A stretch of DNA of 59,818 bases from contig JACPAH010000002.1 of assembly GCA_016180925.1 (NCBI GenBank), positions 1 through 59,818 of the forward strand. The letters run 5' to 3'. The DNA comes from Candidatus Aenigmatarchaeota archaeon. GTDB taxonomy: Archaea > Aenigmatarchaeota > Aenigmatarchaeia > GW2011-AR5. The position numbers and the translations under genes are program-made. The notes below the pieces were generated by a model, which was not told where the DNA came from, ran no database searches, and worked only from the letters and a program-made list of their open reading frames with translations. Shown piece after piece: positions 4-58,415 of the stretch; position 1 is the stretch's first letter, and each line of letters starts with the position of its first letter.

Positions 4-47
4 CGGAAGACAAAGTCTTCCGAGATGCCAAAAAGCTTCGCTTTTTG
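4..47. repeat. two short tandem hairpins (CGGAAGAC-aaa-GTCTTCCG and CAAAAAGC-ttc-GCTTTTTG) joined by AGATGC; member of the window-wide hairpin family
   Basis: inverted repeats read directly; linker and CAAAAG/CTTTTG stem base resemble 15544-15593 and 58316-58362. Confidence 0.5.
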
Positions 48-54
48 AGCATAT

Positions 55-172
55 GTGAAGCAAATAAGCATATCGGGATTCTTTATTTGCTTCACTATAA
101 AGAAAAGTCTTGGTGTCTGCAAAGAGCAAAGCTCTTTGAGACCTCAAAAACCCTTAAAGAGGTTTTTGCAGG
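55..172. repeat. divergent copy of the composite hairpin repeat: long hairpin GTGAAGCAAATAA..TTATTTGCTTCAC, then TCTGCAAAGAGC-aaa-GCTCTTTG, AGACCT, CAAAAACC..GGTTTTTG, CAGG
   Basis: same order of modules as 15497-15593 and 58268-58362; stems differ but remain complementary. Confidence 0.5.
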
Positions 173-193
173 AACCCCAAAGAAATAAATTAA

Positions 194-433
194 TTACTTC
201 GTCTTCCTTCCCATGTACACCGTCTTGACCTTCTGGTGTTTTCCGGGGATGGTCCTGCGGTTCCGGCTGTTTGCATGCTTCCATCTCCAGCTTTCCTTCC
301 TCATCTTAGGCCTGGGAAAACCGCACGCGCTGCACTTCTCCAGGCGCTTGTGGTAGGAATGCCGGCCGCACCTTCGGCAGCGTATATGGACTACCTTGTT
401 GTGCTTTCCGAATGAAGGAGTACCCTTTGACAT
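194..433 (-). CDS. rpl37e: 50S ribosomal protein L37e (eL37)
   Basis: [32 protein letters not shown] zinc-ribbon pattern typical of eL37; adjacent to an Sm gene as in many archaea. Confidence 0.9.
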
Positions 434-435
434 CT

Positions 436-660
436 CTACTCACTTTTCTCAGGAGAAACATAAAGTATGTTGTCGCCGCGGACAAGCAGGGTGCCGAGCC
501 TGGTCTTCTCGCCGTCGCTGTTCTGCTCGGCGCTCTCAAGCCACATGTTGAGATGCAGGTCCATTGCCTGTAATATACCTGATATCTCGGCCCCTTTCTT
601 GAGCTTTATCAGGACCCTCTTCCCTTTTGCATTGTTCAATACGTCTATCGGTCGTTCCAT
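436..660 (-). CDS. Sm-like (LSm/SmAP) RNA-binding protein
   Basis: Sm1/Sm2-like sequence ([27 protein letters not shown]...[11 protein letters not shown]); start moved to the ATG at 660, which has a GGAGG about 8 nt upstream (alternative start 684). Confidence 0.85.
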
Positions 661-786
661 TGAAAACCCTCCAAATTCCTTCAAAGACTGAAATAGTCTT
701 ATTAGAACGCATACTTTTATATACGCAATTCCGAGCCCGCCAATGGTTTTTTAAACATGCATGCGACAAGAAGATGAGGGAAACAG

Positions 787-1164
787 ATGACGAAATGGCA
801 GATAAAGTCCGGAAGAAAGGTCACGGGAGGCCTCCTGAGGAGGCACATGAAGAAGAAGCGATACCAGCGCGGGATGGACTTCGTACCCGTGCATGTGGCC
901 GAGACGAGGAAGCGCAAGCTGCGGACCATGGGCGGCAACATGAAGATATCGCTTATAGCGGCCAACGTCGCGAATGTCCTTGATTCCGGGAAATACAAGA
1001 AGGCGAAGATAGTGACGGTTCTCGAGAACAAGGCCGACCCCCAGTATGTGAGGCGTAACATAATAACCAAGGGCGCGGTAATACAGACCGAGCTGGGGAA
1101 TGCGCGCGTTACATCGAGGCCGGGCCAGGACGGCGTCATAAACGCAATTCTTCTGAAGAAATAA
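787..1164 (+). CDS. rps8e: 30S ribosomal protein S8e (eS8)
   Basis: KSGRKVTGG..RR..KKKRY..G motif and C-terminal ARVTSRPGQDG..NAILL typical of eS8. Confidence 0.9.
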   Translation: MTKWQIKSGRKVTGGLLRRHMKKKRYQRGMDFVPVHVAETRKRKLRTMGGNMKISLIAANVANVLDSGKYKKAKIVTVLENKADPQYVRRNIITKGAVIQTELGNARVTSRPGQDGVINAILLKK

Positions 1165-1170
1165 GGTGTC

Positions 1171-1878: not shown

Positions 1879-1879
1879 G

Positions 1880-3993: not shown

Positions 3994-3997
3994 TATT

Positions 3998-4537: not shown

Positions 4538-7500
4538 ATGCGTGCTGCATACGTAATTCTTGCAGTTGCAATACTTACATCTATTGCCGTTGCCCAGGAC
4601 AACGGAACGCAGCAACCCTATTGCCCGACAGCAAGCTGTGGTCAAAGCTCGCAGACGTGCGCCGACGGCTTCGTCGCGACATGCCAGCAGAGCTGCGACG
4701 AGGCTTCGCGTTCATGCCAGGCGTGCACGCCTTCATGCGCCGGCCATGAACAGGTTCAGGCATGTTCAACGACTTCGGACGGCGTCTGCCCGTCAGGATG
4801 CGCAGCTGGCTCTGACGCTGACTGCTGCACGAATGCCGGCAAGAAGTGGTATTCAGGATACGGATGTTATGACGCCAGCGCTCCTGCTCCAGCGACATGT
4901 TCTGTGACATCCGATGGCATATGCCCAGGAAACTGCGCAGCCGGTTCCGATTATGATTGCTGCACCAATTCAGGAAAATACTGGTATGACAATGGATGCT
5001 TCAGCACGCCAAAACAGACTTCAACTTCCACAGGCTCCTCATCGAATACATCAACTGCGACGACTTCGTGCCCCGCAGCGCCTTCGGCTCCTGCATGCGG
5101 AAAGGAGCAGTTTTTAGATACAAAATACGATTCGAACAGGTGTATAACAGGTTATGAATGCAAAGATTCTTCACGACCCCAGACCTCATGTCCTGCAGCC
5201 CCTTCACCCCCGGCATGCAATGGCTTCCTGGAAAACAGGTTTGACAACAACGGCTGCGTTGTCGGCTACGAATGCAGGACATCTACCAACGTAAACCAGC
5301 AATGCGTTCCAGGGACGATATCTGCCAGGGACGGGGCCGGAAACTGCCAGAATTTCCCCAATTCATGCCTGCCTCCGGGATGGAGCCGCGTTGACAGCTG
5401 CGACAGGTTCCAGGCGCCGTTCTGCGGCGACGGCAGGTGCGACATAGGCGAGAACCCGAATACATGCTCTTCCGACTGCAGCGGCAGCGTGCAGACGCGA
5501 ACGACACAGACATGCCCCGACGGCTCGCAGATACAGTGCAAGCAGGATGCCGACGGGCGCACGTTCTGCGACCAGTGCCCTGTCCAGAACCTGCCTCAGG
5601 GATGCCATCAGGAAAAAGATGACAAAGGCTTCGTGAGAGTCGTGTGCGAATCCAAGAGGACATGCCCAGAAATTTCGCAGGAAGTGAGGCTCAAATGCGT
5701 CGACCAGAAAGGCATTCCGGTCTTCAAGAAAGACCCTTCCGGGTGCGAACAATTCTCGTGTCAGTTTGGCAACGAAGTATCGAACCCGTTCAGCGGCTAC
5801 AACCAGTGCCCTCAGAAGGAGCAGATAGATGCTGAAATGAACAAGTGCGGTTCCCTCGGCCTGAGAGGCGCGATAGTGTTCGAAGGAGGATGCCAGATTG
5901 CGAGGTGCGTCGAGGAAAGGAGAGAGGAGCAGTGCCCGCATGTTTCATCGCAGGAAAAGGAAAAGATAAACAGCGAATGCCTGGCAAAGGGATTCCAGGG
6001 AATAAGAAACCGCTTCGAGGGATGCCGGGAAATCATAGAATGTGCTTCAAGCGACCAAGGCCAATATTCATGCCCAAGGGACGTGCCGCCTGAGGCTTAC
6101 CAGATGTGCGGCGAGAAGGGCGGCGAGCTTATAGTGCAGAGAAACCAGAATGGCTGCGTACAGTTCTCAAGGTGCGTAGCTCCCGGAGATGCGTCCAACG
6201 TTTATGTTGAAAGATCTTCAAGGATACTTGAAAGCTCCGAGCTTCTTTCCCTTGCGTTCAAGCTTGAGTCCCTCAATGTGGAGCTTGACAAGCTTGCAAA
6301 GCAGACCAATGACATAGCCGAATACTACAAATCAACGGGCTCTGCGGACGAAGGGAGATTCAGGCGCGTCTCGGACATGTTTGTTTCTGCAAAGGAAGAG
6401 TCTAGTGGAATAAAGGACAAGATACGAAGCAAAATTGACTCGCTCACTGAAGACGACATGCTCGAGATAAAACGCGACCTGAAATACCTCAAAGATGTGA
6501 TGATAAAGGACATACTCTACGTTATGCTCAGCAGCAATGAAGACGTTGAAGGCTTCTCAGCCACATCTGAAAAATCCGAAAATGACTGCGGCACAGACGG
6601 CGGGTGCTTTGATGAGGCGTTCAGGTTGTGCAAACCAATAACATTCGAGCCCGACAGAGAGGTCACGGTCAGTATAGCCGGTCTTGATGGCGACAACTGC
6701 ATACTGAAGGCAAGGATGAAGGAAGGGAAAGGGCCTCCAGCGGGCGTGATACAGGGAGTGAATCCGCCTTATGAAATGACATGCAAGATAAAGAATTACG
6801 CCCTTGGCATGAAAGGTCCTGAGGACATAATGCCTTTCTGTGAGGGCTCCATGGTCAAGCTCATGGAACAATTCGGGCCGAACGGCGAGAATGCACCGGG
6901 AGTTCCTGGCAAGTGCAGCGGCGATGAGTGCAGGGATTACTGCGGCAGAGGACAGACGGAAGCGAAGGAATGCCTCGAGAATCTCGGGCAATACCTGCCG
7001 CCTGAGGCGAAGCAGGGCCTTGAGATGCTTGCTTCGGGCAAAGGCGGTTTCGGACAGCAAAGGTTTGACCAGGGATTTGAAGGCCAGAGCTTCCAGCAGC
7101 AGGGCTACAGGCCGCAACAGACGATACGTCCAGAGCAGTGCGAATTTACGGACATGAGCGACGAAGAATGTGTTGACTACATACAAAAAAATCTCGGGCC
7201 CCCTTCAGAATGCAAGGGCCTCACGGACGCGCAGTGCAGGAAATTCCTGCTGAGGAAATGGGAAAACCAGAAGCAGCAGCCCGTCCAATCATATGGAGGG
7301 CCGCAGCAATTCCAGCAGAGAGGACAGCAATTTGACCAAGGCGGCTTCCAGGGACAGCAACAGTTTAAAGGACAACAGGATTTTAACCAGCCGGTTCAGC
7401 AATATGGCCAGCAGCAATTTGGAGGGCAGCAGGACTTCGGACAACAACAGTTTCCACAGCAGCAGTATGGGCATGGCGGATTCAACCAGCCTGTCCAGCA

Positions 7501-7657
7501 GTTTATTGAACAAGACTATGGAAGATATGAAGGCGGGGCCCAGGGACAGCAGCAGTATGGTGGTCAGCCTCAGCAGTATTATGGCGGCGCACAGCCGATC
7601 CAACAGACTGAGCCCACATCCCAGCAAACAGTGGCTTCAGGCGGCGGACAGGGGTAG
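4538..7657 (+). CDS. large secreted cysteine-rich protein with duplicated Cys modules, a central coiled-coil-like region and a Q-rich C-terminal tail
   Basis: signal peptide MRAAYVILAVAILTSIAVAQ; duplicated TSDG.CP..CAAGSD.DCCTN.GK.WY and SCPAAPS.PAC modules; tail of QQF/GQQ repeats. Confidence 0.8.
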   Translation: MRAAYVILAVAILTSIAVAQDNGTQQPYCPTASCGQSSQTCADGFVATCQQSCDEASRSCQACTPSCAGHEQVQACSTTSDGVCPSGCAAGSDADCCTNAGKKWYSGYGCYDASAPAPATCSVTSDGICPGNCAAGSDYDCCTNSGKYWYDNGCFSTPKQTSTSTGSSSNTSTATTSCPAAPSAPACGKEQFLDTKYDSNRCITGYECKDSSRPQTSCPAAPSPPACNGFLENRFDNNGCVVGYECRTSTNVNQQCVPGTISARDGAGNCQNFPNSCLPPGWSRVDSCDRFQAPFCGDGRCDIGENPNTCSSDCSGSVQTRTTQTCPDGSQIQCKQDADGRTFCDQCPVQNLPQGCHQEKDDKGFVRVVCESKRTCPEISQEVRLKCVDQKGIPVFKKDPSGCEQFSCQFGNEVSNPFSGYNQCPQKEQIDAEMNKCGSLGLRGAIVFEGGCQIARCVEERREEQCPHVSSQEKEKINSECLAKGFQGIRNRFEGCREIIECASSDQGQYSCPRDVPPEAYQMCGEKGGELIVQRNQNGCVQFSRCVAPGDASNVYVERSSRILESSELLSLAFKLESLNVELDKLAKQTNDIAEYYKSTGSADEGRFRRVSDMFVSAKEESSGIKDKIRSKIDSLTEDDMLEIKRDLKYLKDVMIKDILYVMLSSNEDVEGFSATSEKSENDCGTDGGCFDEAFRLCKPITFEPDREVTVSIAGLDGDNCILKARMKEGKGPPAGVIQGVNPPYEMTCKIKNYALGMKGPEDIMPFCEGSMVKLMEQFGPNGENAPGVPGKCSGDECRDYCGRGQTEAKECLENLGQYLPPEAKQGLEMLASGKGGFGQQRFDQGFEGQSFQQQGYRPQQTIRPEQCEFTDMSDEECVDYIQKNLGPPSECKGLTDAQCRKFLLRKWENQKQQPVQSYGGPQQFQQRGQQFDQGGFQGQQQFKGQQDFNQPVQQYGQQQFGGQQDFGQQQFPQQQYGHGGFNQPVQQFIEQDYGRYEGGAQGQQQYGGQPQQYYGGAQPIQQTEPTSQQTVASGGGQG

Positions 7658-7887: not shown

Positions 7888-8541
7888 ATGCAGAAAGACG
7901 AGCTTTTCAGGGAACTGCTCCTGCAGGGCGTCCGTGAAGGAGTAATAAACGCCATGAAGAAGGTGCCCAGGGAGGACTTCGTCCTGCCCGAGGACGCCGA
8001 CAAGGCATACTGCAACTACCCCCTTCTTCTCCATGAAGGCCAGACCATATCACAACCATTAACTGTCGCGCTGATGACAGAATGGCTGGACGTAAGAGCG
8101 GGCCACAAAGTGCTTGAGGTCGGCGCCGGAAGCGGCTACCAGGCTGCAATATTATCCGTCCTTGCCGGCCCGGAAGGCGGTGTCGTCACGTGCGAAGTCC
8201 GGAAAAGGCTTTACGAATTCGCAAGAAAGAATCTTGAAAGATACGGAAATGTCAAGGTAGTCCATGCGGACGGCTCGAAAGGCTATGTTGAGAGGAATTC
8301 TTTGACTTCCTCTAACATCTCAAAGGAACTCCGTTCCTTTGCAGATGACGGCAAGTTCGACAGGATAATTCTCACAGCCTCGGCAAAAAAGATGCCTGAA
8401 GCCCTCCTCGGCCACCTGAAGGAAGGCGGCATGGCCGTGCTGCCCGTAGGCGACGAGATGTATCTTGTGGAAAGACGCAACAAAAACAAATTCCTAAAGG
8501 AGATGAAAGGTTACTTCGCTTTCGTGCCGCTCGTGGAATAG
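7888..8541 (+). CDS. pcm: protein-L-isoaspartate O-methyltransferase, carrying a 19-codon repeat-derived insert
   Basis: GQTISQP, VLEVGAGSGYQAA, DRIILTA and VLPVG motifs of the Pcm family. Confidence 0.9.
   Translation: MQKDELFRELLLQGVREGVINAMKKVPREDFVLPEDADKAYCNYPLLLHEGQTISQPLTVALMTEWLDVRAGHKVLEVGAGSGYQAAILSVLAGPEGGVVTCEVRKRLYEFARKNLERYGNVKVVHADGSKGYVERNSLTSSNISKELRSFADDGKFDRIILTASAKKMPEALLGHLKEGGMAVLPVGDEMYLVERRNKNKFLKEMKGYFAFVPLVE
8290..8346. repeat. double-hairpin repeat unit inside pcm (AGAGGAA..TTCCTCT, AACATCT, CAAAGGAAC-tcc-GTTCCTTTG, CAGAT)
   Basis: same unit as the intergenic copies; exactly 57 nt, in frame. Confidence 0.7.
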
Positions 8542-8542: not shown

Positions 8543-8794
8543 TCACTTATAGATATTCTTCCTGTGACCAATCTCTATGATCAATATCGTCATTATTTCG
8601 TTATTTATGTCTATAATAATCCTGTAATCCCCGACACGAAGCCTGAAATATTTATAACCAGAAAGCTTTTTCACAAAATCATACGGCCTTGTTTTGACCC
8701 TCTCCAAAACGACCAGTATGCGTTCTTGAACACTTCTATCGAGTTTTTTTAATTGGTCTTCTGATTTTGAGGTAAATTGTATCTTATACATCAT
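8543..8794 (-). CDS. RelE/ParE-family type II toxin
   Basis: F.A..QLKKLD...RI...L...P......KL.G....YRLRVGDYRII..I pattern; 4-nt overlap with the upstream small gene. Confidence 0.8.
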   Translation of the reverse strand: MMYKIQFTSKSEDQLKKLDRSVQERILVVLERVKTRPYDFVKKLSGYKYFRLRVGDYRIIIDINNEIMTILIIEIGHRKNIYK

Positions 8795-9009
8795 AAGCCG
8801 AGTTCCTTCTTTATTTGTTCAAGGGATTTTGTTTTACCTTCTTTGGCCTGTTTTTCTGAATCTAGTATGTTTCTTTTTGTCTCTTCGGAAAGCTCCATAG
8901 AATCCTCTATCAAGTCCCATATCACCTCTTCATAGCTTTCGTTTTCGTATAGCTTTCTTTTCTTCAGGCTCTGCTGAAGATTTTCACTTATTTGTATAGA
9001 CGTTACCAT
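8791..9009 (-). CDS. putative antitoxin of the RelE-family toxin
   Basis: small acidic protein overlapping the toxin start; paralogous to 24334..24510 (..SYEEVIWDLI.. versus ..TYDDIIRNMM..). Confidence 0.6.
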   Translation of the reverse strand: MVTSIQISENLQQSLKKRKLYENESYEEVIWDLIEDSMELSEETKRNILDSEKQAKEGKTKSLEQIKKELGL

Positions 9010-15460: not shown

Positions 15461-15496
15461 GAATATAACAATGGATTTCAGGTTTTAATAATTATA

Positions 15497-15640
15497 GTGA
15501 AACCAGAAAAGAATCCGAACATGAATTCTGGTTTCACATATCTGCAGAAAGCATAGCTTTCTGACATCTCAAAAGACTCTGTCTTTTGCAGATAGTGCAC
15601 AAGGAAAATAATATCTTATTTCTTTCCTTGTAGCACTATA
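15497..15640. repeat. composite hairpin repeat, copy B: GTGAAACCAGAA..TTCTGGTTTCAC, CAGAAAGC-ata-GCTTTCTG, ACATCT, CAAAAGAC-tct-GTCTTTTG, CAGAT, GTGCACAAGGAAA..TTTCCTTGTAGCAC
   Basis: near-identical by eye to 58268-58415 over about 145 nt; differences inside the stems are largely compensated. Confidence 0.75.
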
Positions 15641-16536: not shown

Positions 16537-17718
16537 TCATTTCCTTAACCATAAAAGGCTTTCCCTCAATGTGCCCACCTTCTCGCTCCTGTTCTCCAGC
16601 GCGAACCTCTTGTTGAGCACGATTATCTTTTCCAGGGAAAACCCGAGCTGCTCCGCCATATACGCAAGGACGACGTCGCTGTCCACGACTCCACTCACGT
16701 CTGTGGAGAACGTGCGTTCTCCAAGATCTCCGGGAAGCCTCCGGCTACCCGGCAGATAGCCGTTGCCGACGACAAGCGCGACATTGGCGCCGGGGACGCA
16801 GACGCGATACAGTTCGCCAAGGACCTTTTCCATGTCCTTGAAATACGATACCGCGGCTTGGGGCAGCCCCAGGAACCCATCCTCCGATATCCTTGAGCCG
16901 ATATAAGAGCGCATTGGAGGCAGTCCCTTCGGGCGTATGAAGAACTCCTCTATCGCATAAACTTTCGTGTAGTCTATGTTGTTCAGGTAGGGGGGAGATG
17001 TTATGATGGAACCCACACTTTCGTCCTCCAGCTCGAGCCTCCTTGCGTCGCACAGTGCGACGCCAGTCCTGCAGTCCCTGAAGCTGAGCCTCTTCACGTC
17101 CTTCGCCATCTTCTTCACGACGTTCCTGAACATTATCCTCAGCGGGGCCGCCTGGCGCTTCCTTATCTTCAGCGAGCCGCCGTCTTTCCTGGCATAGCTG
17201 CACCTGATGGAGGCGTTTATCAGGGCGAGGATGAAGAAGTCCCTGTACTTCTCGTCTTCTATTTTCATTATGTCCCTCATGAGAAATGCGATGTCCTCGA
17301 GGGCGAATTTGCTGAAAGCCCGCTTCATAAGCGGCGGATATTCGGAAGGCAGCTTTTCGAACTTCCTCCTGAACCCGGAATATATCTCCCTTACCGTTGC
17401 CGTGTCGTAGTCCTTCGCCTTGACCGAGGACGCAAAAATCGAGACAGGCAGCACGTCAAGGCCCACGGAGTCTATCCCAAGCTCCCTGCATGCAAGGAGA
17501 GTCGTGCCGGAACCACAGAACGGGTCAAGGACAGGCAGCGAGACGTCATGCTGAAACATGTCCAGTATCTTGAGCACGAGTTCCCTCGAGAAGCCTTCCT
17601 TGTAGTAGAACCAGTTGTATACCGGCGTCTTCTTGTTGGGCACGAACGTCGCAAGCTCCGCCCATTCCAGCTTTTCCTCTATCTTTCCTATAATACTATG
17701 CGCATATTCCTTGAACAT
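16537..17718 (-). CDS. SAM-dependent N6-adenine/N4-cytosine-type methyltransferase (DNA methylase-like), no adjacent endonuclease recognised
   Basis: DPFCGSGTT (motif I) near the N-terminus and TSPPY (motif IV) about 175 aa later. Confidence 0.7.
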   Translation of the reverse strand: MFKEYAHSIIGKIEEKLEWAELATFVPNKKTPVYNWFYYKEGFSRELVLKILDMFQHDVSLPVLDPFCGSGTTLLACRELGIDSVGLDVLPVSIFASSVKAKDYDTATVREIYSGFRRKFEKLPSEYPPLMKRAFSKFALEDIAFLMRDIMKIEDEKYRDFFILALINASIRCSYARKDGGSLKIRKRQAAPLRIMFRNVVKKMAKDVKRLSFRDCRTGVALCDARRLELEDESVGSIITSPPYLNNIDYTKVYAIEEFFIRPKGLPPMRSYIGSRISEDGFLGLPQAAVSYFKDMEKVLGELYRVCVPGANVALVVGNGYLPGSRRLPGDLGERTFSTDVSGVVDSDVVLAYMAEQLGFSLEKIIVLNKRFALENRSEKVGTLRESLLWLRK

Positions 17719-21370: not shown

Positions 21371-21420
21371 AAGCCCCTTTTCTTTTCAAAAAAGAAAAGG
21401 CCCTTGGGTTCAAAAGAAAA
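21371..21420 (+). repeat. trailer module AAGCCCC-[11-bp hairpin]-GGCCCTTGGGTTCAA.., homologous to the 5' part of the tRNA-Cys intron (58491-58540)
   Basis: by-eye alignment; hairpin arms CCTTTTCTTTT/AAAAGAAAAGG here versus CCTTCTTTCTT/AAGAAAGAAGG there, changed on both arms. Confidence 0.6.
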
Positions 21421-21453: not shown

Positions 21454-21563
21454 TCTGCAACGGAATAAGATTCCGTTGAGATGCTAATGGCATTGAAGAA
21501 TGCCATTCAGCAGATGAGAACTCTGCAAAGAATTCTCTCAGAATTCTTTGAGATCTCAGAGAG
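21454..21563. repeat. array of three family hairpins (CAACGGAAT-aag-ATTCCGTTG; AATGGCATT-gaag-AATGCCATT; CAAAGAATTCT-ctc-AGAATTCTTTG) with TCTGCA / AGATGC / CAGCAGAT / AGATCTC linkers
   Basis: inverted repeats read directly. Confidence 0.6.
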
Positions 21564-22137: not shown

Positions 22138-22187
22138 AGAAGTGTATTGCTAGTCAAATAGATAAATATGACGTATTTGGCAGCAAT

Positions 22188-22245
22188 GTACAAAAGACAA
22201 AGCCTTTTGACATGCCAAAGAACTTTCAGTTCTTTGCGCATATGC
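22188..22245. repeat. double hairpin unit (CAAAAG-acaaagc-CTTTTG, ACATGC, CAAAGAAC-tttca-GTTCTTTG, CGCAT)
   Basis: inverted repeats read directly. Confidence 0.55.
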
Positions 22246-22337: not shown

Positions 22338-22446
22338 ATCTGCAAATGTGCGAAAACCGAAGGATTTCGACATCCCAAAGGAATTCTATTCCTTTGCGGA
22401 AAGCTTCGCTCTTTGAGATCTCAAAGGAGGGACCTCCTTTGAAGAT
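22338..22446. repeat. array of four family hairpins (ATCTGCA.., CGAAAACC-gaa-GGATTTCG, ACATCC, CAAAGGAAT-tct-ATTCCTTTG, .., GAGATCT, CAAAGGAG-ggac-CTCCTTTG, AAGAT)
   Basis: read directly; 22369-22400 is nearly identical to 24983-25014. Confidence 0.6.
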
Positions 22447-22480
22447 ACGGAAACGCCGAAAAAAGAAGAATTATCCCCGG

Positions 22481-23311: not shown

Positions 23312-23416
23312 TTCTTTATATTGTCTGCAATGGCATTATGAATAAATGGCGCTGAGATGATAAAGATGGCGGCAAATGCTATCTTTAATCATTTTGCCGA
23401 ATCTAATAGAAACATG

Positions 23417-23553
23417 GGCAGGTAGCTTAGCCTGGTAGAGCACCTGACTGATATCGCAGAAAGCGCAGCTTTCTGGGAGCTTGGAAAGAAGGAAACACTG
23501 AAGTTCTTTCCCAATCATCAGGAGGTCGAGAGTTCAAATCTCTTCCTGCCCAT
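23417..23553 (+). tRNA. tRNA-Ile(GAU) with a 63-nt anticodon-loop intron (23455-23517)
   Basis: manual cloverleaf: acceptor GGGCAGG/CCTGCCC, D arm GCTT-AGCCTGGTA-GAGC, anticodon stem CCTGA/TCAGG, loop CTGATA+A, variable AGGTC, T arm GAGAG-TTCAAAT-CTCTT, discriminator A. Confidence 0.85.
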
Positions 23554-24333: not shown

Positions 24334-24510
24334 ATGGCAACGACGATAGCGGTAAGCGATGAAACAAAAGAAATGCTTAAAACCCTCGGGACAAAGGACG
24401 AGACATACGACGATATAATCAGGAACATGATGATAGCATATGAAGAATTCCTGAACAGACAGTACAAAAGGCTTGAAGAAAGAAATAAATTCAAAAAGAT
24501 GGTTTTCTAG
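24334..24510 (+). CDS. putative antitoxin (58 aa; below the ORF-track size cut-off)
   Basis: hand translation MATTIAVSDETKEMLKTLGTKDETYDDIIRNMMIAYEEFLNRQYKRLEERNKFKKMVF; the stop abuts the toxin ATG; paralogue of 8791..9009. Confidence 0.55.
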   Translation: MATTIAVSDETKEMLKTLGTKDETYDDIIRNMMIAYEEFLNRQYKRLEERNKFKKMVF

Positions 24511-24774
24511 ATGGATGTATTTCTGCACAATCAGGCAGAAAAATTTCTGAACACTCTTGATAGAAAAATACAACCATCGATAAAAGAGCATCTGAAAACC
24601 CTCTCAAAAGAGCCGTATTCAAAGCTGCTTGACATAAAAAAACTGAAAGGCATGGGCAGAAAACCTGACATTTTTCGGCTTCGTGTCGGGGAATACAGGA
24701 TAATATACTTTATTCAAGGAAATGAAATACTTGTTACCGACATAATCAGAAGAGAAGCCGGATATAATCTGTGA
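24511..24774 (+). CDS. RelE/ParE-family type II toxin (second copy)
   Basis: ..A.KFL..LD......I...L..L...P.....KKL.G....FRLRVGEYRIIY.I pattern, paralogous to 8543..8794. Confidence 0.8.
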   Translation: MDVFLHNQAEKFLNTLDRKIQPSIKEHLKTLSKEPYSKLLDIKKLKGMGRKPDIFRLRVGEYRIIYFIQGNEILVTDIIRREAGYNL

Positions 24775-25024
24775 AAACCGGACTTCGACTTCAAATTCAG
24801 ATTTAAATAGCTTATCACCGAATTAAAGTAAGCTCTCACGTACTCGGAAAGGCATAGTTTTGTCTTTCGCCGCGTTCTACGTACAGGCAATTGACGCCTC
24901 CGGCGCCGGTCTGGTTGGGCGAGGGCCAGTCCTCAGAGAGAACTGGTTCGCTGACAAAGGAATTTCATATTTACTCAAATAACATCCCAAAGGAATAGAA
25001 TTCCTTTGCGGAGAGGAATGGAGA
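24775..25024 (+). promoter_or_regulatory. non-coding leader of about 250 nt upstream of rpl3, with a GC-rich structured core and a terminal family hairpin (24983-25014)
   Basis: no credible ORF; CGCCGCGT..ACGCCTCCGGCG, palindrome CCGGCGCCGG, CCAGT..ACTGG, then ACATCC-CAAAGGAAT-aga-ATTCCTTTG-CGGAGAGG just before the ATG. Confidence 0.4.
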
Positions 25025-27830: not shown

Positions 27831-27850
27831 AATGGCAAATGAAACAAATT

Positions 27851-27915
27851 TCATTTCAATTGCTCAAAGACCGAAGGTCTTTGGCATCTCAAAAGGGCAA
27901 AGCTCTTTTGCAGAT
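27851..27915. repeat. family double hairpin in the L2-S19 spacer (TCATTTCAATTGCT, CAAAGACC-gaa-GGTCTTTG, GCATCT, CAAAAGGGC-aaa-GCTCTTTTG, CAGAT)
   Basis: read directly; homologous flank-to-flank with 29047-29111. Confidence 0.7.
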
Positions 27916-27947
27916 TCAAAAACAGAAATCTGTGTGGTGTCTTAGAA

Positions 27948-28337: not shown

Positions 28338-28349
28338 TGTGCTCTTAAT

Positions 28350-28580: not shown

Positions 28581-28584
28581 CAAT

Positions 28585-29031: not shown

Positions 29032-29046
29032 GAAACGGAATAATAT

Positions 29047-29111
29047 TCCATTTCATTGCCCAGAGAACTCCTGTTCTCTGGCATCTCAAAAGAGACACCT
29101 CTTTTGCAGAT
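29047..29111. repeat. family double hairpin in the L22-S3 spacer (TCCATTTCATTGC, CCAGAGAAC-tcct-GTTCTCTGG, CATCT, CAAAAGAG-acac-CTCTTTTG, CAGAT)
   Basis: read directly; homologous to 27851-27915. Confidence 0.7.
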
Positions 29112-29143
29112 TTCGAAACGAAAGACTCGAAGGTGTTTCAAAA

Positions 29144-30580: not shown

Positions 30581-30607
30581 TGCAAATGGAATACAATTCC
30601 ATTTGAT
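30581..30607. repeat. single family hairpin TG-CAAATGGAAT-aca-ATTCCATTTG-AT in the Rpp29-S17 spacer
   Basis: read directly. Confidence 0.5.
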
Positions 30608-31848: not shown

Positions 31849-31902
31849 AGGTGTTTGAATGGTTCAGCTAAAAATTCAAGACGAAAAGGGTTCCGCTTTA
31901 TG

Positions 31903-32016
31903 TGCAACGGCATTGAAAACCTCTGTCTTTAGACAGAGAATGAAACACAATGCCGTTGACATGACAAAGATGTTAGAAACCGGCATCTTTAGATGCCGGA
32001 GATATAAACATCTTTG
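31903..32016. repeat. enlarged family unit: two long outer stems (CAACGGCATTG/CAATGCCGTTG; CAAAGATGTT/AACATCTTTG), each enclosing an inner hairpin, joined by ACATGA
   Basis: read directly; lies in the 198-nt L24-S4e spacer. Confidence 0.65.
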
Positions 32017-32046
32017 CTCATTTTTAGCTTTGCATGAGGTGCTAGA

Positions 32047-33418: not shown

Positions 33419-33778
33419 ATGGCAAAGATAATGGTCGTAGAGGATGAGGAACGATATATGGCGCAGATAGCGGAGATAGCGGAACGTGCAGGACACAGCG
33501 TTGTGAAATGTTATTATGGAGGAAGTGCGGCTGATGTTTACGACAGAGAAGTCCCGGATATGGTAGTCACTGATTTTTCATGCGGAATTACAACAGGCGT
33601 TGATGTAACAAGGCAAATAAGAGAAAGAGGAAGTGAAGTTCCTGTTTATATCCAGTCCATGCGGTCTATACCGGGTGGGCTCGTTGCAAGAAGCGGTGCA
33701 AACGGTTTCATCTTAAAGGGTAATCTTGATGCAGAACTCCCCCCTGTAATAAGAAAGCATTTTGGTGGTAGAGAATGA
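33419..33778 (+). CDS. stand-alone CheY-like response-regulator receiver domain
   Basis: KIMVVEDEE acidic pocket, MVVTDFS phospho-acceptor Asp context, ..VYIQSMRS.. Ser/Thr position, ANGFILKG Lys position; ATGA overlap with the rps8 start. Confidence 0.75.
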   Translation: MAKIMVVEDEERYMAQIAEIAERAGHSVVKCYYGGSAADVYDREVPDMVVTDFSCGITTGVDVTRQIRERGSEVPVYIQSMRSIPGGLVARSGANGFILKGNLDAELPPVIRKHFGGRE

Positions 33779-37517: not shown

Positions 37518-37963
37518 GCGTAAGATTCAGGAAAAAGATAACGAGGCAGCGCGGAAGCAGCACGCACGGCTGGGGCTCCAAGAAAAAGCACCGCGGCGGC
37601 GGCTCCCTTGGCGGACGCGGCATGTCCGGATACCACAAGCACAAATTCTCTTTCGTTGTCAGCAAGGATCCGGAGCATTTCGGCTACAAGGGCTTCACTT
37701 CAATCGAAAAAAAGGACAAAACAATCAACATCGATGACATGAAAAGGCTTATGAATAAATCCGCGATTCCTTCAGGCTCTCAGAAGATTTCATCCTCTGC
37801 AGAGCTTATGAAGGACGGCGCTGTAGACCTGGTTTCCATGGGATACGGAAAGCTTCTGTCGAGGGGAAAAATAGACAAGGCCGTCACGGTCAGGGTAAGA
37901 AAGTTTTCGGCCAAAGCCAAGGAAAAGATAGAAGCAGCCGGCGGAAACATAGTATCCGAATAG
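37514..37963 (+). CDS. rpl15: 50S ribosomal protein L15 (uL15)
   Basis: ..R.K..RQRGS.THGWG.KK.HRG.G..GG.G..G..KH.. motif; start at the ATG overlapping the L30 stop. Confidence 0.9.
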   Translation: MSVRFRKKITRQRGSSTHGWGSKKKHRGGGSLGGRGMSGYHKHKFSFVVSKDPEHFGYKGFTSIEKKDKTINIDDMKRLMNKSAIPSGSQKISSSAELMKDGAVDLVSMGYGKLLSRGKIDKAVTVRVRKFSAKAKEKIEAAGGNIVSE

Positions 37964-39496: not shown

Positions 39497-39541
39497 AACT
39501 TCCTCATCGAAAACAGCGCCCGCAAGAACATAACAATCAGA

Positions 39542-40609: not shown

Positions 40610-40846
40610 GTGATAATTAAGGGTAAGGAAGTGACCTATACTTATCATCTTTATGAGAGGCTTTACAGAGTAAAGGACATTGACGTTGTGAATGAGACAT
40701 TGCTGACGGGCGAATGGAACGCCTTCGGCAAAGACATGTTCAAGGTGTCAAGGAAATTCAAGAAAAGAAAAATAACTCTGGTGGTCAAGGAACTGCCGGA
40801 CAGATTTAAAGTGATAACAGTAGAAGGCGATAAACATGAAATGTGA
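40610..40846 (+). CDS. small protein, possible toxin partner (weak DUF4258-like YHLYERLYRV.. segment)
   Basis: GTG start; 11-nt overlap with the downstream AbrB/zinc-ribbon gene. Confidence 0.4.
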   Translation: MIIKGKEVTYTYHLYERLYRVKDIDVVNETLLTGEWNAFGKDMFKVSRKFKKRKITLVVKELPDRFKVITVEGDKHEM

Positions 40847-41138
40847 ATGCGGGAGCGAAATGAAAATAGAAAAAGTGGAGGTTTTTCCCGGCTTGTTTAG
40901 CGAGGGGTACAAATGCCAGAAATGCGGCGAAATAGAGTTCAATGAGGAGCAGATGAGGAAAGCCTTGCTTGTGAAAGAAAAGGCAATAAAAATCATGGTC
41001 AAAAGAAAGCTTGGAAAGCTTGGCGAATCACTGATTCTTAGAATACCGAAATCCGTCGAAGAGTCATTGAACCTGAAATCGGGCGAGGACGTGAAGATAA
41101 TTGTCGAGAGAAATAAAATGATAATAGAATCCGACTAA
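40836..41138 (+). CDS. zinc-ribbon plus AbrB/MazE/SpoVT-like domain protein (antitoxin-like)
   Basis: MKCECG...CQKCG ribbon; LILRIPKSVEESLNLKSGEDVKI swapped-hairpin motif. Confidence 0.6.
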   Translation: MKCECGSEMKIEKVEVFPGLFSEGYKCQKCGEIEFNEEQMRKALLVKEKAIKIMVKRKLGKLGESLILRIPKSVEESLNLKSGEDVKIIVERNKMIIESD

Positions 41139-41208: not shown

Positions 41209-41916
41209 TCAGAATAGCCTGACCACAATGAACGCAAAAAGCAGCATGCTTGCGAAGTCGGCGAGCGACGTCGTTATCGGCACGAGGAAGTTGTTCGGGT
41301 CCTCCTTCTTCCTGTATATGTAGATGCCGGCCGCGAGCGATGCCAGGAATATTATTCCAACGAGTATCATGGTGCACAAAACCGAGACAGCCATGACCTT
41401 CAGGAACACTGACGGGTCGAACGGGAAGCCGCCGTAATATGCCATGCCATATGATACCGCCCCGATGTACAGCGACGTTATCAGGGCGACGGCAAGAAGC
41501 GTCGCCATAAGCTTCCTAAGCCCAGGAGATTTCATCACGCCTGCCCTGATGCTTATCTTCCCTGTATAGAGCATGGCAGTGAACTTCGACGAGACTATGG
41601 TGCCGTAATCCCCTATCATGTCGTTCAGTGCCGGGAGCATTATCAGCAGCGGAATTATGGTGACGAGCTTTTCCTTCACGTTCTCAAGGCCCACGCCGCC
41701 TACCGAGCTTATGATGGCCGCTATTATAAGGATTTTCATGCTTTCCTTCATGATGACGGAAGCGATATGTGACCTCGTCCCGTATTCCTTCATGTAGAAG
41801 AGCGTCATGTAGGATATCCTGTGTTTCTTGTGCATTGAATGGATGACAGGGTGGTGCTTATGGCGCTTTATGCCGTGCAGCTTCGCGAATTTCTTGTCAA
41901 TCTTCAAAGGAGGCAC
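41209..41916 (-). CDS. MgtE-type divalent-cation transporter membrane domain protein
   Basis: ..IIPLLIMLPALNDMIGDYGTIVSSKF.. and five TM helices; the GTG start lies inside a repeat hairpin, so the true start may be further downstream. Confidence 0.7.
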   Translation of the reverse strand: MPPLKIDKKFAKLHGIKRHKHHPVIHSMHKKHRISYMTLFYMKEYGTRSHIASVIMKESMKILIIAAIISSVGGVGLENVKEKLVTIIPLLIMLPALNDMIGDYGTIVSSKFTAMLYTGKISIRAGVMKSPGLRKLMATLLAVALITSLYIGAVSYGMAYYGGFPFDPSVFLKVMAVSVLCTMILVGIIFLASLAAGIYIYRKKEDPNNFLVPITTSLADFASMLLFAFIVVRLF

Positions 41917-41954
41917 CTCCTTTGATATCTCAAAAAACTTCGTTCTTTGCAGAG
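41903..41954. repeat. family double hairpin between the two MgtE-domain genes (CAAAGGAG-gcac-CTCCTTTG, ATATCT, CAAAAAAC-ttc-GTTCTTTG, CAGAG)
   Basis: read directly; reads as the same consensus on either strand. Confidence 0.65.
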
Positions 41955-42553: not shown

Positions 42554-42684
42554 GCGCCTGTAGTCTAATGGTAGCTTGACGCTAAAGACGTCGTGCCAGT
42601 AAAGGACCACAGCCTTCCAAGCTGTTGACTGTAGCTAATAATTTGGCTCAGGCAGAAATCCGGGTTCGAATCCCGGCGGGCGCA
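42554..42684 (+). tRNA. tRNA-Gly(UCC) interrupted at three positions (about 42574-42585 D loop/stem, 42591-42608 at position 26/27, about 42626-42654 variable region)
   Basis: manual fold: acceptor GCGCCTG/CGGGCGC, GTCT-AATGGTA-[12 nt]-AGAC, G, [18 nt], ACAGC-CTTCCAA-GCTGT, [about 29 nt], GAAAT, CCGGG-TTCGAAT-CCCGG, discriminator A; TATA-like TTTTTATAAGC 24-34 nt upstream. Confidence 0.55.
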
Positions 42685-55159: not shown

Positions 55160-55173
55160 CGCACCCCATCATT

Positions 55174-55746: not shown

Positions 55747-55915
55747 CACCTGAATAGACTTCCCACCCGAAGATTTAAAACGATTTGGGACATCAATTAA
55801 TAATGAATCTGCACAGTGCAGAAAGAACACACGAGCTCGATATGGCCCTCATAGAGCAATACGTCAGGGAACTGCTTGAAGGCCCGGAGCGCGCGCCTCT
55901 GGCAAGGGTGGAGAT

Positions 55916-56239
55916 GTGACAATGCAGCCGACAATAATAGCATACCTGAAGCCGCACTGCGGATGGAGCGCCGGCGTGAGAGCGATAATGAAGAAGTACG
56001 GGCTTGAATACGAGGACAGGGACATAATCAACGACCCCTTCCAGTTCCAGGAGATGGCGAGGAAATCAGGGCAAACTTTGTCGCCGTGCGTGGAGATTGA
56101 CGGGAAGCTCCTGCCGGACGTATCCGGGGAAGAGGTCGAGAATTATCTTGTTGAAAATGGATACGTCGAAAGAAAAGGCGACGAGCCTGAAGTGCCGATT
56201 GATTCTGCGTGCGGCGACGAGCATGTGCACGGAAATTGA
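55916..56239 (+). CDS. glutaredoxin-fold protein with a monothiol CGWS site (CGFS-type-like)
   Basis: IIAYLKPHCGWSAGVRAIMKKYGLEYE..DI.... resembles the K.xPxCGFS context; GTG start (alternative ATG at 55922). Confidence 0.55.
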   Translation: MTMQPTIIAYLKPHCGWSAGVRAIMKKYGLEYEDRDIINDPFQFQEMARKSGQTLSPCVEIDGKLLPDVSGEEVENYLVENGYVERKGDEPEVPIDSACGDEHVHGN

Positions 56240-56287
56240 ATGCGTTCTACTTCGTGGGAATGAGCCGCTTTAATTCTTTCCCTGTCT

Positions 56288-57265
56288 ATGCTGTTTGGTA
56301 TGCCCGACATATACGAATTCGAGCTGATAACGCCGGAGAAGAAGGACGAGCTGCTCGACGAAATAAACGGCAGGAAAATAAACATAGAGAAGGCGTACAT
56401 ACACGGGATGTGCATAGAGCTCATCACGGACAGCAAGGAGTTCAAGGAGTTCTGGCAGGACAACTTCCACCACATCTCGGAGCACATAAGGCCCCATGGC
56501 CGCGTGATAGCGATGCAGCATCCTGGATACGGGAAGCCTGAGTTCCTCTACGAGCCCATGTCCAAGACGTGCTTCGTCATGAACTGCGACTATTACGGGT
56601 ACGTGAAGAGCATCGCGCTTGCGGTGGCGGCCGACTTCCTCGAGGACTACCATTCGCTTACGAACAGGTACTCGATACACGGCTCCTGCATAGACATAAA
56701 CGGGCAGGGGCTTGTCCTGATAGCCCCGTCGAACACCGGAAAGACGACCCACAGCTTCGGGCTGCTTCTTTACAGGAACGCCAGCCTTGTCAGCGATGAC
56801 TGGCTGTTCGTCCGGATGAAGAAGGACACTGCTATCGCATACTCGTCGGAGCGCAACAGCTACATACGCGACGACATTGGCAAGAACTGGAAAATCTTCC
56901 AGCCGCTTGTCGACAACGCAATGCTCGACAAGAAAGGCCGCGGCATCGCCAGTGTCCAGGACGTCATAGGGATGGACAGAACGAGGGAGACAACTACCAT
57001 AAGAAGCGTATTCATACTCAAGAGGGACGCCTCGGACAGCAGGATAATATATAGACTGCCGCCTGACGAAGCCGTGGAATACATATCGAAGCACTATTAC
57101 TGCAATCCCTACCAGCTTGTCATGGACGAAAGGAAGATACGCCTGCGCACTGCGTTCTTCATGCAGCTTTTCTCCATGCTGGACGTCTACATGGTCAACA
57201 CCGTGAAGCCGCCGGAAGAGACGCAGGCTGAAATCCGCAGGCTTGTGGATGAAATATTCAAGTGA
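56288..57265 (+). CDS. P-loop protein resembling the HPr kinase/phosphorylase C-terminal (PEPCK-like) fold
   Basis: HGSCIDINGQGLVLIAPSNTGKTTHS resembles HG....V.G.GVL..G.SG.GKS; function not assignable. Confidence 0.45.
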   Translation: MLFGMPDIYEFELITPEKKDELLDEINGRKINIEKAYIHGMCIELITDSKEFKEFWQDNFHHISEHIRPHGRVIAMQHPGYGKPEFLYEPMSKTCFVMNCDYYGYVKSIALAVAADFLEDYHSLTNRYSIHGSCIDINGQGLVLIAPSNTGKTTHSFGLLLYRNASLVSDDWLFVRMKKDTAIAYSSERNSYIRDDIGKNWKIFQPLVDNAMLDKKGRGIASVQDVIGMDRTRETTTIRSVFILKRDASDSRIIYRLPPDEAVEYISKHYYCNPYQLVMDERKIRLRTAFFMQLFSMLDVYMVNTVKPPEETQAEIRRLVDEIFK

Positions 57266-57326
57266 ATCCCGGGCCGCCGCGAAGACAGGCAAAAAACTTT
57301 ATCTTGTCGCGTCCTGATAATTTCTT

Positions 57327-58253
57327 ATGCTGCTGCCCGCCATCCTTCTCATTGCCGGTTTCGTCGTCCTGCTGAAGGCAAGCGACTACACAGTGAGGCA
57401 CTCGATTGCCCTGTCGCGCCAGTCGGGAATAAGCGAAATCATAATAGGATTCGTCCTTGTTGCGATAGGAACTTCGGTGCCTGAGATGTCCATAGCCGTG
57501 ATATCGTCGCTTCACGGGAACGGCTCGCTGAGCTTCGGCAACCTCATAGGCGCCAACGTGGCGCTTCTTACCCTGATATTCGGCGTGATGGCGCTCATCG
57601 GCTTCAAGATACAGAAGGAGCGCCTGATGGAGATAAACCAGGCTGTGATATTTACCGCAATAATCGCTGTGTTCCTCATATACCTGATGAAGGTGGATAT
57701 TGCATTCGGGCTCTTCTCCATAATCCTTTTCTACGCATTCCTGAAGAACATATACAGCGAGGAGAAACGGTTCGAGCGCAAAAGGCACCCGAAAGACAGG
57801 AAAAAGACGGCAAAAATTCTCCTGTACCTTCTTGCGTCGATAGCCCTTGTCGTGGCCGGGGCCGAGATGATAACAAAATCCGCCACGGAAATCTCCGCCC
57901 TGTTCGGCCTCGGCAATACCGTTATAGGAGCCACGCTGCTTGCCGTAGGAACGACGATACCGGAATTCAGCGTCAATATAATGGCGCTGAGAAGGAAGGA
58001 CATAAACTTGGCTATAGGCGACAGCATAGGAAGCATAGTCACCAACATAACCCTGGTGCTGGGCATAGCGTCCATAATAAGCCCCATATACATAGACGCT
58101 TCAGGGAGACTGGCCCTGGTGACGATGCTTGTCGCGAGCGGCATATTCCTCTACTTTGCGACGCACCTCAAGCTGAAAAAGGAGCAGGGGCTGATACTAA
58201 TCGCCTCATACATAATTTTCCTCTACCTTATGCTCTCCGGCGCGGCCGTATAG
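57327..58253 (+). CDS. CaCA-family sodium/calcium exchanger (YrbG/NCX_Mj-like)
   Basis: two alpha-repeats GTSVPEMS and GTTIPEFS; about 10 TM. Confidence 0.85.
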   Translation: MLLPAILLIAGFVVLLKASDYTVRHSIALSRQSGISEIIIGFVLVAIGTSVPEMSIAVISSLHGNGSLSFGNLIGANVALLTLIFGVMALIGFKIQKERLMEINQAVIFTAIIAVFLIYLMKVDIAFGLFSIILFYAFLKNIYSEEKRFERKRHPKDRKKTAKILLYLLASIALVVAGAEMITKSATEISALFGLGNTVIGATLLAVGTTIPEFSVNIMALRRKDINLAIGDSIGSIVTNITLVLGIASIISPIYIDASGRLALVTMLVASGIFLYFATHLKLKKEQGLILIASYIIFLYLMLSGAAV

Positions 58254-58267
58254 TTTCGCGATTTATA

Positions 58268-58415
58268 GTGAAGCCAGAAAAGAATCCGGACATGAATTCC
58301 GGTTTCACATATGCTCAAAAGCGAAGCTTTTGGCATCTCAAAAGACTCTGTCTTTTGCAGATAGTGCACAAGGAAAATAAATATATTGTTTCTTTCTTTG
58401 CATGACTATAAATGT
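58268..58415. repeat. composite hairpin repeat, copy C; its 3' part carries the TATA-like ACTATAAATG (58405-58414) about 25 nt upstream of tRNA-Cys
   Basis: near-identical by eye to 15497-15640. Confidence 0.75.

Follow-up and report, generated by a model that had tools for sequence, protein, structure and literature searches.

A hairpin module conserved in shape rather than in sequence is probably the core of a family of small mobile DNA repeats in Aenigmatarchaeota

Short hairpins built to one plan recur in operon spacers, beside and inside tRNA genes and within protein-coding sequences of a 59,818-nt stretch of a Candidatus Aenigmatarchaeota archaeon (assembly GCA_016180925.1, contig JACPAH010000002.1, positions 1 to 59,818, forward strand; the whole stretch is henceforth called the window), which raises the question of whether they are RNA structures kept by selection or repeat DNA that has moved between sites. 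Both options were offered by the original prediction, a reading of the window from its sequence, as a selected RNA structure or as a DNA element resembling repetitive extragenic palindromic sequences (REP) or MITEs (miniature transposable elements with inverted repeats). Empty sites in relatives, target duplications and the carriage of the module in a MITE favour the DNA element over the selected RNA structure. We consider it fairly probable that Aenigmatarchaeota possess a lineage-specific family of mobile DNA repeats, small, hairpin-forming and non-autonomous, and that the modules are its common core.

About 27 hairpin units were found at 17 loci in the window (Table 1), amounting together to about 1.49 kb (2.5% of the window), and the hairpins listed in the original prediction were present where it had placed them. 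A unit is about 30 nt long and consists of a lower stem of 3–4 bp, a 1-base bulge, an upper stem of 8–11 bp that mostly begins with CAAAG and has a purine-rich and a pyrimidine-rich arm, and a loop of 3–4 nt. The bulged base is G, T or A on the 5′ side or C, A or T on the 3′ side, and units are mostly paired as mirror images, with a 5′-side bulge in the first and a 3′-side bulge in the second, which is why a pair reads alike on both strands. Pairs are framed as ATCTG-hairpin-AGATCT/ACATCT/GCATCT-hairpin-CAGAT; the stem base, linkers and closure had therefore been described correctly, in a plan that was incomplete in that the bulged 3–4 bp lower stem was missing from it. Perfect hairpins with stems of at least 7 numbered 50 in the window versus 22.7 ± 4.9 in 100 dinucleotide shuffles, and those with stems of at least 8 numbered 30 versus 5.7 ± 2.3. 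Where the stem base CA[AG]A[AG] was also required, 18 were observed versus 0.34 ± 0.57 (shuffle maximum 3). A lower stem of at least 3 bp across a 1-nt bulge, i.e., a feature independent of the selection of the hairpins, was present in 88 of 172 perfect hairpins from the window and related archaeal loci, compared with 10.3 ± 3.1 (maximum 22) expected when the 3′ flanks were swapped among the 172 hairpins. These lower stems occurred in more than 25 different complementary versions (ATCT/AGAT, TGC/GCA, TACA/TGTA, ATGC/GCAT, TCC/GGA, ACTC/GAGT, and others). A hairpin scan relaxed to accept G·T pairs and a single mismatch gave too much noise to be of use.

A covariance model, proposed as a check in the original prediction, was built from 34 units of equal length, four of which came from the window. 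An unfiltered run over the window matched 13 of the 15 loci listed earlier at an expectation value (E) of at most 1, 12 of them at E < 0.1. The match at 24983-25014 was weak, and the model missed two loci, the perfect 10-bp hairpin at 30581-30607, which has no flanking frame, and the long nested hairpins at 31903-32016. Two unlisted places were added, one in the coding sequence of a DNA methylase and a weak one in the L15 gene. Across copies, the arms share a purine-rich consensus, and the distal stems vary.

Insertion was inferred solely from sites with an empty orthologue. The first such site lies between the genes of a metallo-beta-lactamase and a class I aminoacyl-tRNA synthetase, where the window carries a 146-nt composite with a module pair at its centre, ends TATAGTG...CACTATA and terminal inverted repeats TAGTG/CACTA. 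This site is empty in the related loci L146 (methylase 91% identical in amino acids; the same two genes 31 nt apart) and L142. As the empty L142 site reads ATC-TA-ATTATTAAAG and the filled window site ATC-TA-[TAGTG...CACTA]-TA-ATTATTAAAA, the composite is a MITE with TA duplication. Copies were found three times in the window, three times in the genome JACPJX (L026, L029, L112), and once in JACPJV (L079). In the window copy that is cut by the window start, a long hairpin (GTGAAGC..GCTTCAC) spans 55-95 and the terminus reads CACTATA. A copy is present at the same site in L143 and probably in L147, two contigs that stop at the element or close to it. The MITE is only one of the module's vehicles, not the whole family, because the bare pairs and the elements E1 and E2 (see below) have neither terminal inverted repeats nor a TA duplication.

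E1 and E2 are located in a ribosomal-protein operon of typical archaeal order (L3-L4-L23-L2-S19-L22-S3-Rpp29-S17-L14-L24-S4e-L5-...-SecY) and are homologous end to end (GAAAC..ATTTCA-TTGCY-hairpin-GGCATCT-hairpin-CAGATT..GGTGTYT). E1 is flanked by a perfect 10-nt duplication, AAATGGCAAA (27830-27839 and 27946-27955; 10/10), and AAATGA stands on either side of E2. Comparison of orthologous loci for presence or absence of units, likewise suggested beforehand, found both junctions empty in the closest relative, L121 (74–84% amino acid identity), in which the L2 and S19 genes abut (TAA-A-ATG) and ATGA is shared by the overlapping L22 and S3 genes; this comparison indicates that E1 and E2 are insertions. 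Through them, GGTG comes to lie 10 nt ahead of the S19 and S3 start codons. On either side of a third element, E3, stands an imperfect direct repeat of 26 nt (31849-31874 and 32037-32062), in which the Shine-Dalgarno sequence, the ATG and the first codons of S4e are contained. Membership of the lone hairpin between Rpp29 and S17 in the family is doubtful because it has no flanking frame. In other species, modules occupy other spacers of the same operon, namely L19e|L18 (L048), L14|L24 (L136), upstream of Rpp29 (L138) and L4|L23 (L141), and both module orientations occur in the one operon of L048. Short open reading frames (ORFs) result from the insertions, i.e., 38 codons in E1 (27832-27948) and 63 codons in E3 (31859-32050), begun at the duplicated S19 and S4e start codons, and E2 gives an open N-terminal extension of S3 (29018-29131).

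Two pairs lie within protein-coding genes, whose products, Pcm and a DNA methylase, had their best named matches in metagenome-assembled genomes (MAGs) of Candidatus Aenigmarchaeota/Aenigmatarchaeota. An exact match to the window's Pcm protein was encoded on a single public contig, a Logan assembly contig of 9.8 kb. The module was indeed found in frame in pcm, as had been claimed, with exactly 60 nt (20 codons) in the gene of a 217-aa protein. The insert is missing from the two closest homologues (P0002 and P0003, 89% and 82% identical outside the gap). In the 69%-identical JACPJX protein (L002) it is present and identical at 19 of 20 amino acids and 57 of 60 nucleotides, compared with 68% identity outside the insert and 48% at third codon positions (binomial P = 5e-7). 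One of the three differences between the two inserts is a compensated pair, A-T to G-C on both arms of hairpin 1. A sister of the pcm insert in JACPJX (L043) is intergenic, with the frame TATGTTG-hairpin-AACATCT-hairpin-CAGAT and flanking AATTATG repeats. An exon-exon helix around the pcm insert was not conserved in L002. The methylase insert adds 18–19 residues, GSRRLPGDLGERTFSTDVS, in frame after GNGYLP. It is missing in homologues of 91%, 85%, 74%, 72% and 56% identity and is found at the same position in five other homologues that are 53–75% identical. A perfect pair with quite different stems is also present in one 55%-identical methylase (P0129), whose lower stem (ACGT/ACGT) matches changed Tyr-Val codons of the host gene. 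Both inserts are free of stop codons and in frame, as expected if they are translated.

Structural RNA genes are also occupied. The claim that the module forms the intron of tRNA-Ile(GAU) holds for hairpin 1 of this intron, CAGAAAGC-gca-GCTTTCTG, which is typical and has a stem identical to that of common units (E = 0.003); it does not hold for the weak hairpin 2 (E = 0.3), and the linker and the closing CAGAT are absent. The introns of tRNA-Ile(UAU) in relatives contain hairpins unrelated to the modules. Three tRNA genes with introns were called in the window by Rfam and by ARAGORN with intron search on, and none by ARAGORN in default mode. The tRNA-Ala intron (15 nt) is not module-like, nor are the two introns of the third tRNA, and deleting the modules at 21454-21563 in silico exposed no hidden tRNA. 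The introns of this third tRNA (42554-42684) interrupt the D-loop and the variable region, both non-canonical positions, and measure about 31 nt each; its anticodon is UCC (Gly) in the Rfam alignment, and ARAGORN with intron search gives Asn(gtt) with a single intron. In the genome JACPJW, a canonical pair lies in an insertion of about 200 nt in the 23S rRNA gene (L077), in a classical intron region, and in JACPDL the 5S rRNA gene (L106 1255-1445) has a hairpin-bearing insertion of about 73 nt in helix III/loop C, flanked by CGAAAC/CGAAAAC direct repeats. The JACPJW 23S rRNA gene (L077 275-6038) measures 5.7 kb for a 2,987-nt model, with about 2.8 kb of insertions.

The distribution of the module was determined by scanning 185,579 species genomes of Bacteria and Archaea (one per species) for the frame CATCTCAAAR-N7-17-YTTTGCAGAT, which matched at least 112 stretches. 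Among the matches listed, about 27 belonged to MAGs of Aenigmatarchaeota, uncultured archaea, Woesearchaeota or Bathyarchaeota, nine archaeal matches coming from the one genome JACPJX, and the remaining ones were single matches in unrelated bacteria. These listed matches contained 42 true family hairpins in 192 kb of archaeal versus one in 639 kb of bacterial loci, and the covariance model matched 49 times in archaea versus twice in bacteria in the first 100 of the frame-matched loci. Within this set, many Aenigmatarchaeota MAGs share the unit plan, which is essentially absent from bacteria. The pair cTTGCT-hairpin-GGCATCT-hairpin-CAGATa recurs in several species, and sub-families with other frames (TGTACA, TGCACA) exist. 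There was no sign of a viral origin; five frame matches in viral contigs are at chance level, and the one inspected (L004) is not a hairpin.

In two units, TCAAAGGAG-nnnn-CTCCTTTGA at 22421-22442 and 41904-41925, GGAGG is paired to CCTCC and an in-frame TTG follows 6–7 nt after GGAGG; on the coding strand of the MgtE-like genes, hairpin 1 of the second locus contains GGAGGTG and this TTG. Read from the sequence, the TTG is likely the present start of the NAD kinase gene (22421-22442) and of the second MgtE-like gene (41904-41925), and the GGAGG-CCUCC pairing may allow translational control through sequestration of the ribosome-binding site.

Whether such pairing is kept as RNA was assessed from the changes between copies. 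In the 11 inner pairs of 82 distinct model matches, 253 cells had changed on both sides, six were G·U cells and nine were other mismatches; G·U (about 0.7% of cells) was thus no commoner than other mismatches, in a count biased downwards by a model seed that had been picked for perfect Watson-Crick stems. In an RNA helix under selection, G·U pairs are normally accepted much more readily than other mismatches. Bulged units with perfect stems numbered 88 and those with one mismatch 11, and 4 of these 11 mismatches were G·T or A·C (one sense, two antisense and one of undetermined strand, as assigned by a codon-usage strand predictor), which are too few to decide. Selected cis-acting RNA elements in polycistronic transcripts, spread through function and not by selfish mobility, could serve as processing or stability determinants or control initiation by Shine-Dalgarno sequestration. 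They would account for window copies lying without exception between co-directional genes, in an intron or in coding sequence, hence in transcribed DNA, for the GGTG ahead of the downstream ATG in E1 and E2, for the two units with paired GGAGG, for a pcm insert much more conserved than its host gene, and for the hairpin potential kept in the methylase insert of distant homologues. We nevertheless hold this explanation to be unlikely, given that the same junctions are empty in the closest relatives while other species use other spacers, that the few wobbles fall on both strands, and that units also occur in rRNA insertions. From the near absence of G·U, the lack of positional conservation, the occurrence of both orientations within the L048 operon and the carriage in a TA-duplicating MITE we conclude that complementarity is set at the DNA level. 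A more specific proposal about RNA was that the tRNA-splicing endonuclease processes the units as substrates resembling the bulge-helix-bulge, cutting them from tRNA, mRNA and rRNA. The units in the tRNA-Ile intron and at the classical intron region of 23S rRNA speak for it, as does the relaxed endonuclease specificity of DPANN archaea. It is nonetheless very improbable, since the units have a single 1-nt bulge in place of a pair of 3-nt bulges with a 4-bp helix between them, no canonical motif was found at the pre-tRNA-Ile splice sites or the pcm insert boundaries in minimum-free-energy folds, the inserts in coding sequences are consistent with translation, and relatives have unrelated hairpins in their tRNA introns. 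Most simply, introns would be landing sites tolerated in the same way as operon spacers.

At the DNA level, the hairpins could also be made locally by a palindrome-forming process such as hairpin-templated repair or, at a break, synthesis by fold-back or template switching, which would leave new perfect inverted repeats beside a short conserved motif, instead of being copied from masters. Such a process would explain why the stems are perfect and at the same time highly diverse, why an "empty" methylase allele (P0122) already has the beginning of the 5′ arm along with the lower stem on that side (TATCTGCCGGG), to which the insert adds the inverted complement, why the P0129 lower stem covaries with the host codons, and why flanking duplications differ in length. 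The homology of E1 and E2 beyond their hairpins, near-identical copies at different loci and in different genomes, the conserved purine-rich arm consensus, and a composite with clear TA target duplication and terminal inverted repeats argue instead that pre-existing elements were copied, and local formation is regarded as improbable. CRISPR and integron attC sites were dismissed on anatomy, intrinsic terminators for want of T-runs after the hairpins, and double-stranded DNA operator sites because the spacing is variable and the interior complementary.

The preferred explanation, a family of mobile DNA repeats, would work as follows. Two mirror-oriented bulged-hairpin units make a quasi-palindromic pair, which is used in three settings: bare (pcm, methylase), in elements of about 106–110 nt (E1, E2), and in the 146-nt MITE. 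Copies would be inserted at the DNA level and, the genome being very compact, persist only where they are tolerated, i.e., at co-directional gene junctions, in tRNA and rRNA introns or insertions, and, in frame and stop-free, in surface loops of proteins. As geometry is conserved and sequence is not, a structure-specific trans-acting enzyme probably recognises the units in the form of folded single-stranded DNA, by analogy with HUH/Y1 transposases on the hairpins of REP and IS200/IS605. Two mechanisms, singly or together, would keep the arms perfectly complementary: hairpins that are no longer intact would fail to spread, and mismatches in extruded hairpins would be repaired with the opposite arm as template; the compensated change between the near-identical pcm inserts fits repair of this kind. 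Some copies appear to have been co-opted, so that the downstream gene would take its Shine-Dalgarno sequence and start codon from them.

Several observations weigh against this explanation, in addition to the bias of the model seed. Flanking repeats of at least 8 nt were found in 9 of 55 hairpin clusters versus 5.6 ± 2.1 in controls, which is not significant, hence the restriction to sites with empty orthologues. Target duplications vary in length (3, 6, 7, 10 and about 26 nt), and with the weak flank test this means that a single classical cut-and-paste mechanism is not established for the bare pairs and the E-type elements. Every window copy lies in co-directional surroundings that are presumably transcribed. 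From its spread among homologues the methylase insert looks ancient, and yet its hairpins in the window and in P0129 are perfect while differing in sequence, so that either the structure has been maintained or insertion has been repeated at the same site, both of which would be unusual for decaying selfish DNA. Moreover, Pfam scans found no gene for a transposase, HUH enzyme or integrase in the window, as the original prediction had noted for transposases, and none was linked to modules elsewhere. The only related gene was a TnpB gene (OrfB_IS605/Cas12f-like; L144 1-318) about 2.5 kb from the methylase locus of a related MAG; IS200/IS605-family elements therefore occur in the lineage. More tentatively, the patchy distribution of the methylase insert and the near identity of the pcm inserts of two diverged lineages point to a hairpin-specific mobility or maintenance system in Aenigmatarchaeota. 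In this possible but rather speculative extension, an enzyme would read the bulged DNA hairpin by its shape and insert pairs repeatedly at the same sites, essential genes included, with the arms kept by hairpin-templated repair, as an archaeal analogue of REP/RAYT or attC/integrase recognition.

Several known systems resemble the family. REP and bacterial interspersed mosaic elements (BIMEs) are found in enterobacteria and pseudomonads and are mobilised by RAYT, a Y1/HUH transposase. Shared with them are short (20–40 nt) imperfect palindromes whose stem asymmetry sets the orientation, alternating orientation, short conserved linkers and abundance between co-directional genes; REP and BIMEs are also recognised by structure. 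REP sequences, however, are conserved within a genome and have a GTAG-type 5′ tetranucleotide, whereas here the feet are ATCT, TGC, TACA and others, sequence varies while geometry is conserved, copies also lie in coding sequences and introns, the host is an archaeon, and Pfam scans of the window found no RAYT (Y1/HUH) gene. The subterminal hairpins of palindrome-associated transposable elements (PATEs) derived from IS200/IS605 are similar in having an extrahelical base and are read as single-stranded DNA by a dimeric Y1 transposase. Unlike the present family, with its duplications and mirrored hairpins, IS200/IS605 elements make no target duplication and have hairpins in the same orientation; of this family, TnpB was observed in the relative, and no TnpA was identified. 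The 146-nt composite, with 5′-TA-3′ termini, TAGTG/CACTA and secondary structure, resembles TA-type MITEs (IS630/Tc1-mariner; PMC2229807), and like MITEs it is small, non-coding and multi-copy, with empty sites in relatives. The RPE repeats of Rickettsia and the MJRE repeats of M. jannaschii (Ogata 2000, 2002; Suyama 2005, summarised in PMC2229807) are palindromic and found in intergenic regions, in frame in conserved protein genes that are not disrupted, and in structural RNA genes. They differ in being single long stem-loops of 100–150 nt with recognisable sequence families (PMC2229807), compared with a 30-nt bulged hairpin that is used modularly, in pairs and nested in larger elements, and has almost perfectly Watson-Crick stems. 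Judged by sequence, the family is not a member of REP/BIME, TA-type MITEs, RPE or MJRE, and the literature yielded no prior description of these elements in Aenigmatarchaeota or DPANN. The combination of a shape-conserved 30-nt module, modular use, near-pure Watson-Crick stems, occurrence throughout a DPANN phylum and patchy same-site inserts in two conserved enzymes is distinctive, i.e., a known kind of selfish DNA in an undescribed and structurally unusual version.

The coordinates of all features are given in Table 1. Among the loci outside the operon and the MITE, the pair at 114-174 is located 3′ of the L37e gene, ACGTATT stands on both flanks of the pair at 22185-22245 (at 22171 and 22252), AGCTTC..GCGA stands on both flanks of the pair at 41899-41953, and the single unit upstream of L3 looks like the remnant of an E-type element.

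Table 1. Hairpin-bearing features of the window, with positions counted from its first nucleotide and E referring to the covariance model.
Feature	Position	Strand	Details
MITE copy 3, reverse orientation, cut by window start	1..98	-	Pair 4-22, 29-47 (E=4e-9, 7e-4)
Hairpin pair	114..174		120-138 (5′-bulge, GTCT-G-..-AGAC, E=7e-8), 145-168 (3′-bulge, CCT..C-AGG, E=1e-4)
pcm insert, hairpin pair	8287..8346	+	60 nt, 20 aa VERNSLTSSNISKELRSFAD, in frame; hairpins 8291-8313, 8321-8341
MITE copy 1, TA|TAGTG..CACTA|TA	15493..15640		Long terminal hairpins; central pair 15545-15563, 15570-15588
Methylase insert, hairpin pair	16699..16758	-	TATCTG-[CCGGGTAGCC..GGCTTCCCGG]-AGATCT-[TGGAGAAC..GTTCTCCA]-CAGAC
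Three tandem hairpins	21454..21563		21458-21478, 21486-21507, 21526-21550 (third E=0.05); downstream of tRNA-Ala
Hairpin pair, ATGC/GCAT lower stems	22185..22245		E=2e-5 and 5e-6
Four tandem units	22338..22447		Last unit 22421-22442 holds GGAGG and in-frame TTG
Variant single unit TAAAGATGGC..GCTATCTTTA	23356..23393	+	One G·T pair; E=0.016; upstream of tRNA-Ile
tRNA-Ile(GAU) intron, 63 nt	23454..23516	+	Hairpin 1 (23457-23475) typical; hairpin 2 imperfect, atypical
Single 3′-bulge unit ATCC-CAAAGGAAT..ATTCCTTTG-C-GGA	24983..25014	+	E=0.6; upstream of L3 gene
E1, 106 nt	27840..27945	+	Between L2 and S19; hairpins 27837-27856, 27865-27883, 27890-27910
E2, 110 nt	29032..29141	+	Between L22 and S3; hairpins 29060-29081, 29087-29106
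Lone perfect 10-bp hairpin CAAATGGAAT-aca-ATTCCATTTG	30583..30605		Between Rpp29 and S17; no model match
E3	31875..32036	+	Long hairpins, smaller ones nested in loops; between L24 and S4e
Candidate single unit CTCT-CAGAAGAT..ATCCTCTG-C-AGAG	37776..37805	+	L15 coding sequence; one A·C mismatch; weak, E=0.03
Hairpin pair	41899..41953		Junction of two MgtE-like genes (minus strand)
MITE copy 2	58264..58410		Architecture as 15493-15640; pair 58316-58332, 58339-58357

A second conserved hairpin family, AAGCC-CCTTTTCTTTT-caa-AAAAGAAAAGG-CCCTTGGGTTCAA, in which differences between copies are compensated, has window copies at 21376-21400, beginning 7 nt past the 3′ end of tRNA-Ala, and at 58496-58520, preceded by the stretch 58415-58495 and by no detectable tRNA. 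In relatives, copies were found at L077 3744-3763 and 3864-3885 and at L106 1634-1654 and 2151-2171, with further ones at L068 277-297, L104 1538-1558, L050 852-876 and L048 5864-5886; this family may be a tRNA trailer, terminator or processing element. A perfect 13-bp hairpin that does not belong to the module family, ATGAGGAAGTTCT-tcaggt-AGAACTTCCTCAT, lies at 39476-39507 over the 3′ end of secY, opposite a convergent gene.

The window has a G+C content of about 0.51. A gene for a response-regulator receiver domain lies within the ribosomal-protein operon between L5/S14 and S8 (33419-33778), and in L121 a similar ORF (KRVLLVDD...) is found between L3 and L4 instead (about 110-447), so this small gene takes different operon positions in related genomes. 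The S19-L22 spacer measures about 230–245 nt in the window (28340-28585) and L121 (2770-2990) and seems to code for a small unknown protein (MNDVRIERTG... in the window). A 1,039-aa ORF at 4538-7657 has no Pfam match and is 75% identical in the JACPJX MAG. Toxin-antitoxin genes are located at 8543-9009, 24334-24774 and 40836-41138 (two ParE-toxin genes, each with a small partner ORF upstream, and a MazE-like antitoxin gene), a high density for so small a genome.

DPANN archaea have genomes among the smallest and most compact known, and despite this compactness about one fortieth of the window is structured repeat DNA. In practice, the repeats cause trouble: assemblies are broken (the L143 and L147 contigs end inside copies), intron-containing tRNAs are hidden, and gene callers are misled into spurious N-terminal extensions of S3 and NAD kinase and false short ORFs. 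For the organism, they have reshaped an essential ribosomal-protein operon with new spacers, short ORFs and new translation start regions, have added 18–20 residues to two conserved enzymes, and have come to lie in a tRNA intron as well as, in relatives, in rRNA genes. The family is a phylum-wide marker of recent genome change and a natural experiment on the tolerance of in-frame insertion, and its shape-conserved, sequence-variable hairpins with nearly pure Watson-Crick pairing point to a candidate structure-reading DNA enzyme in archaea.

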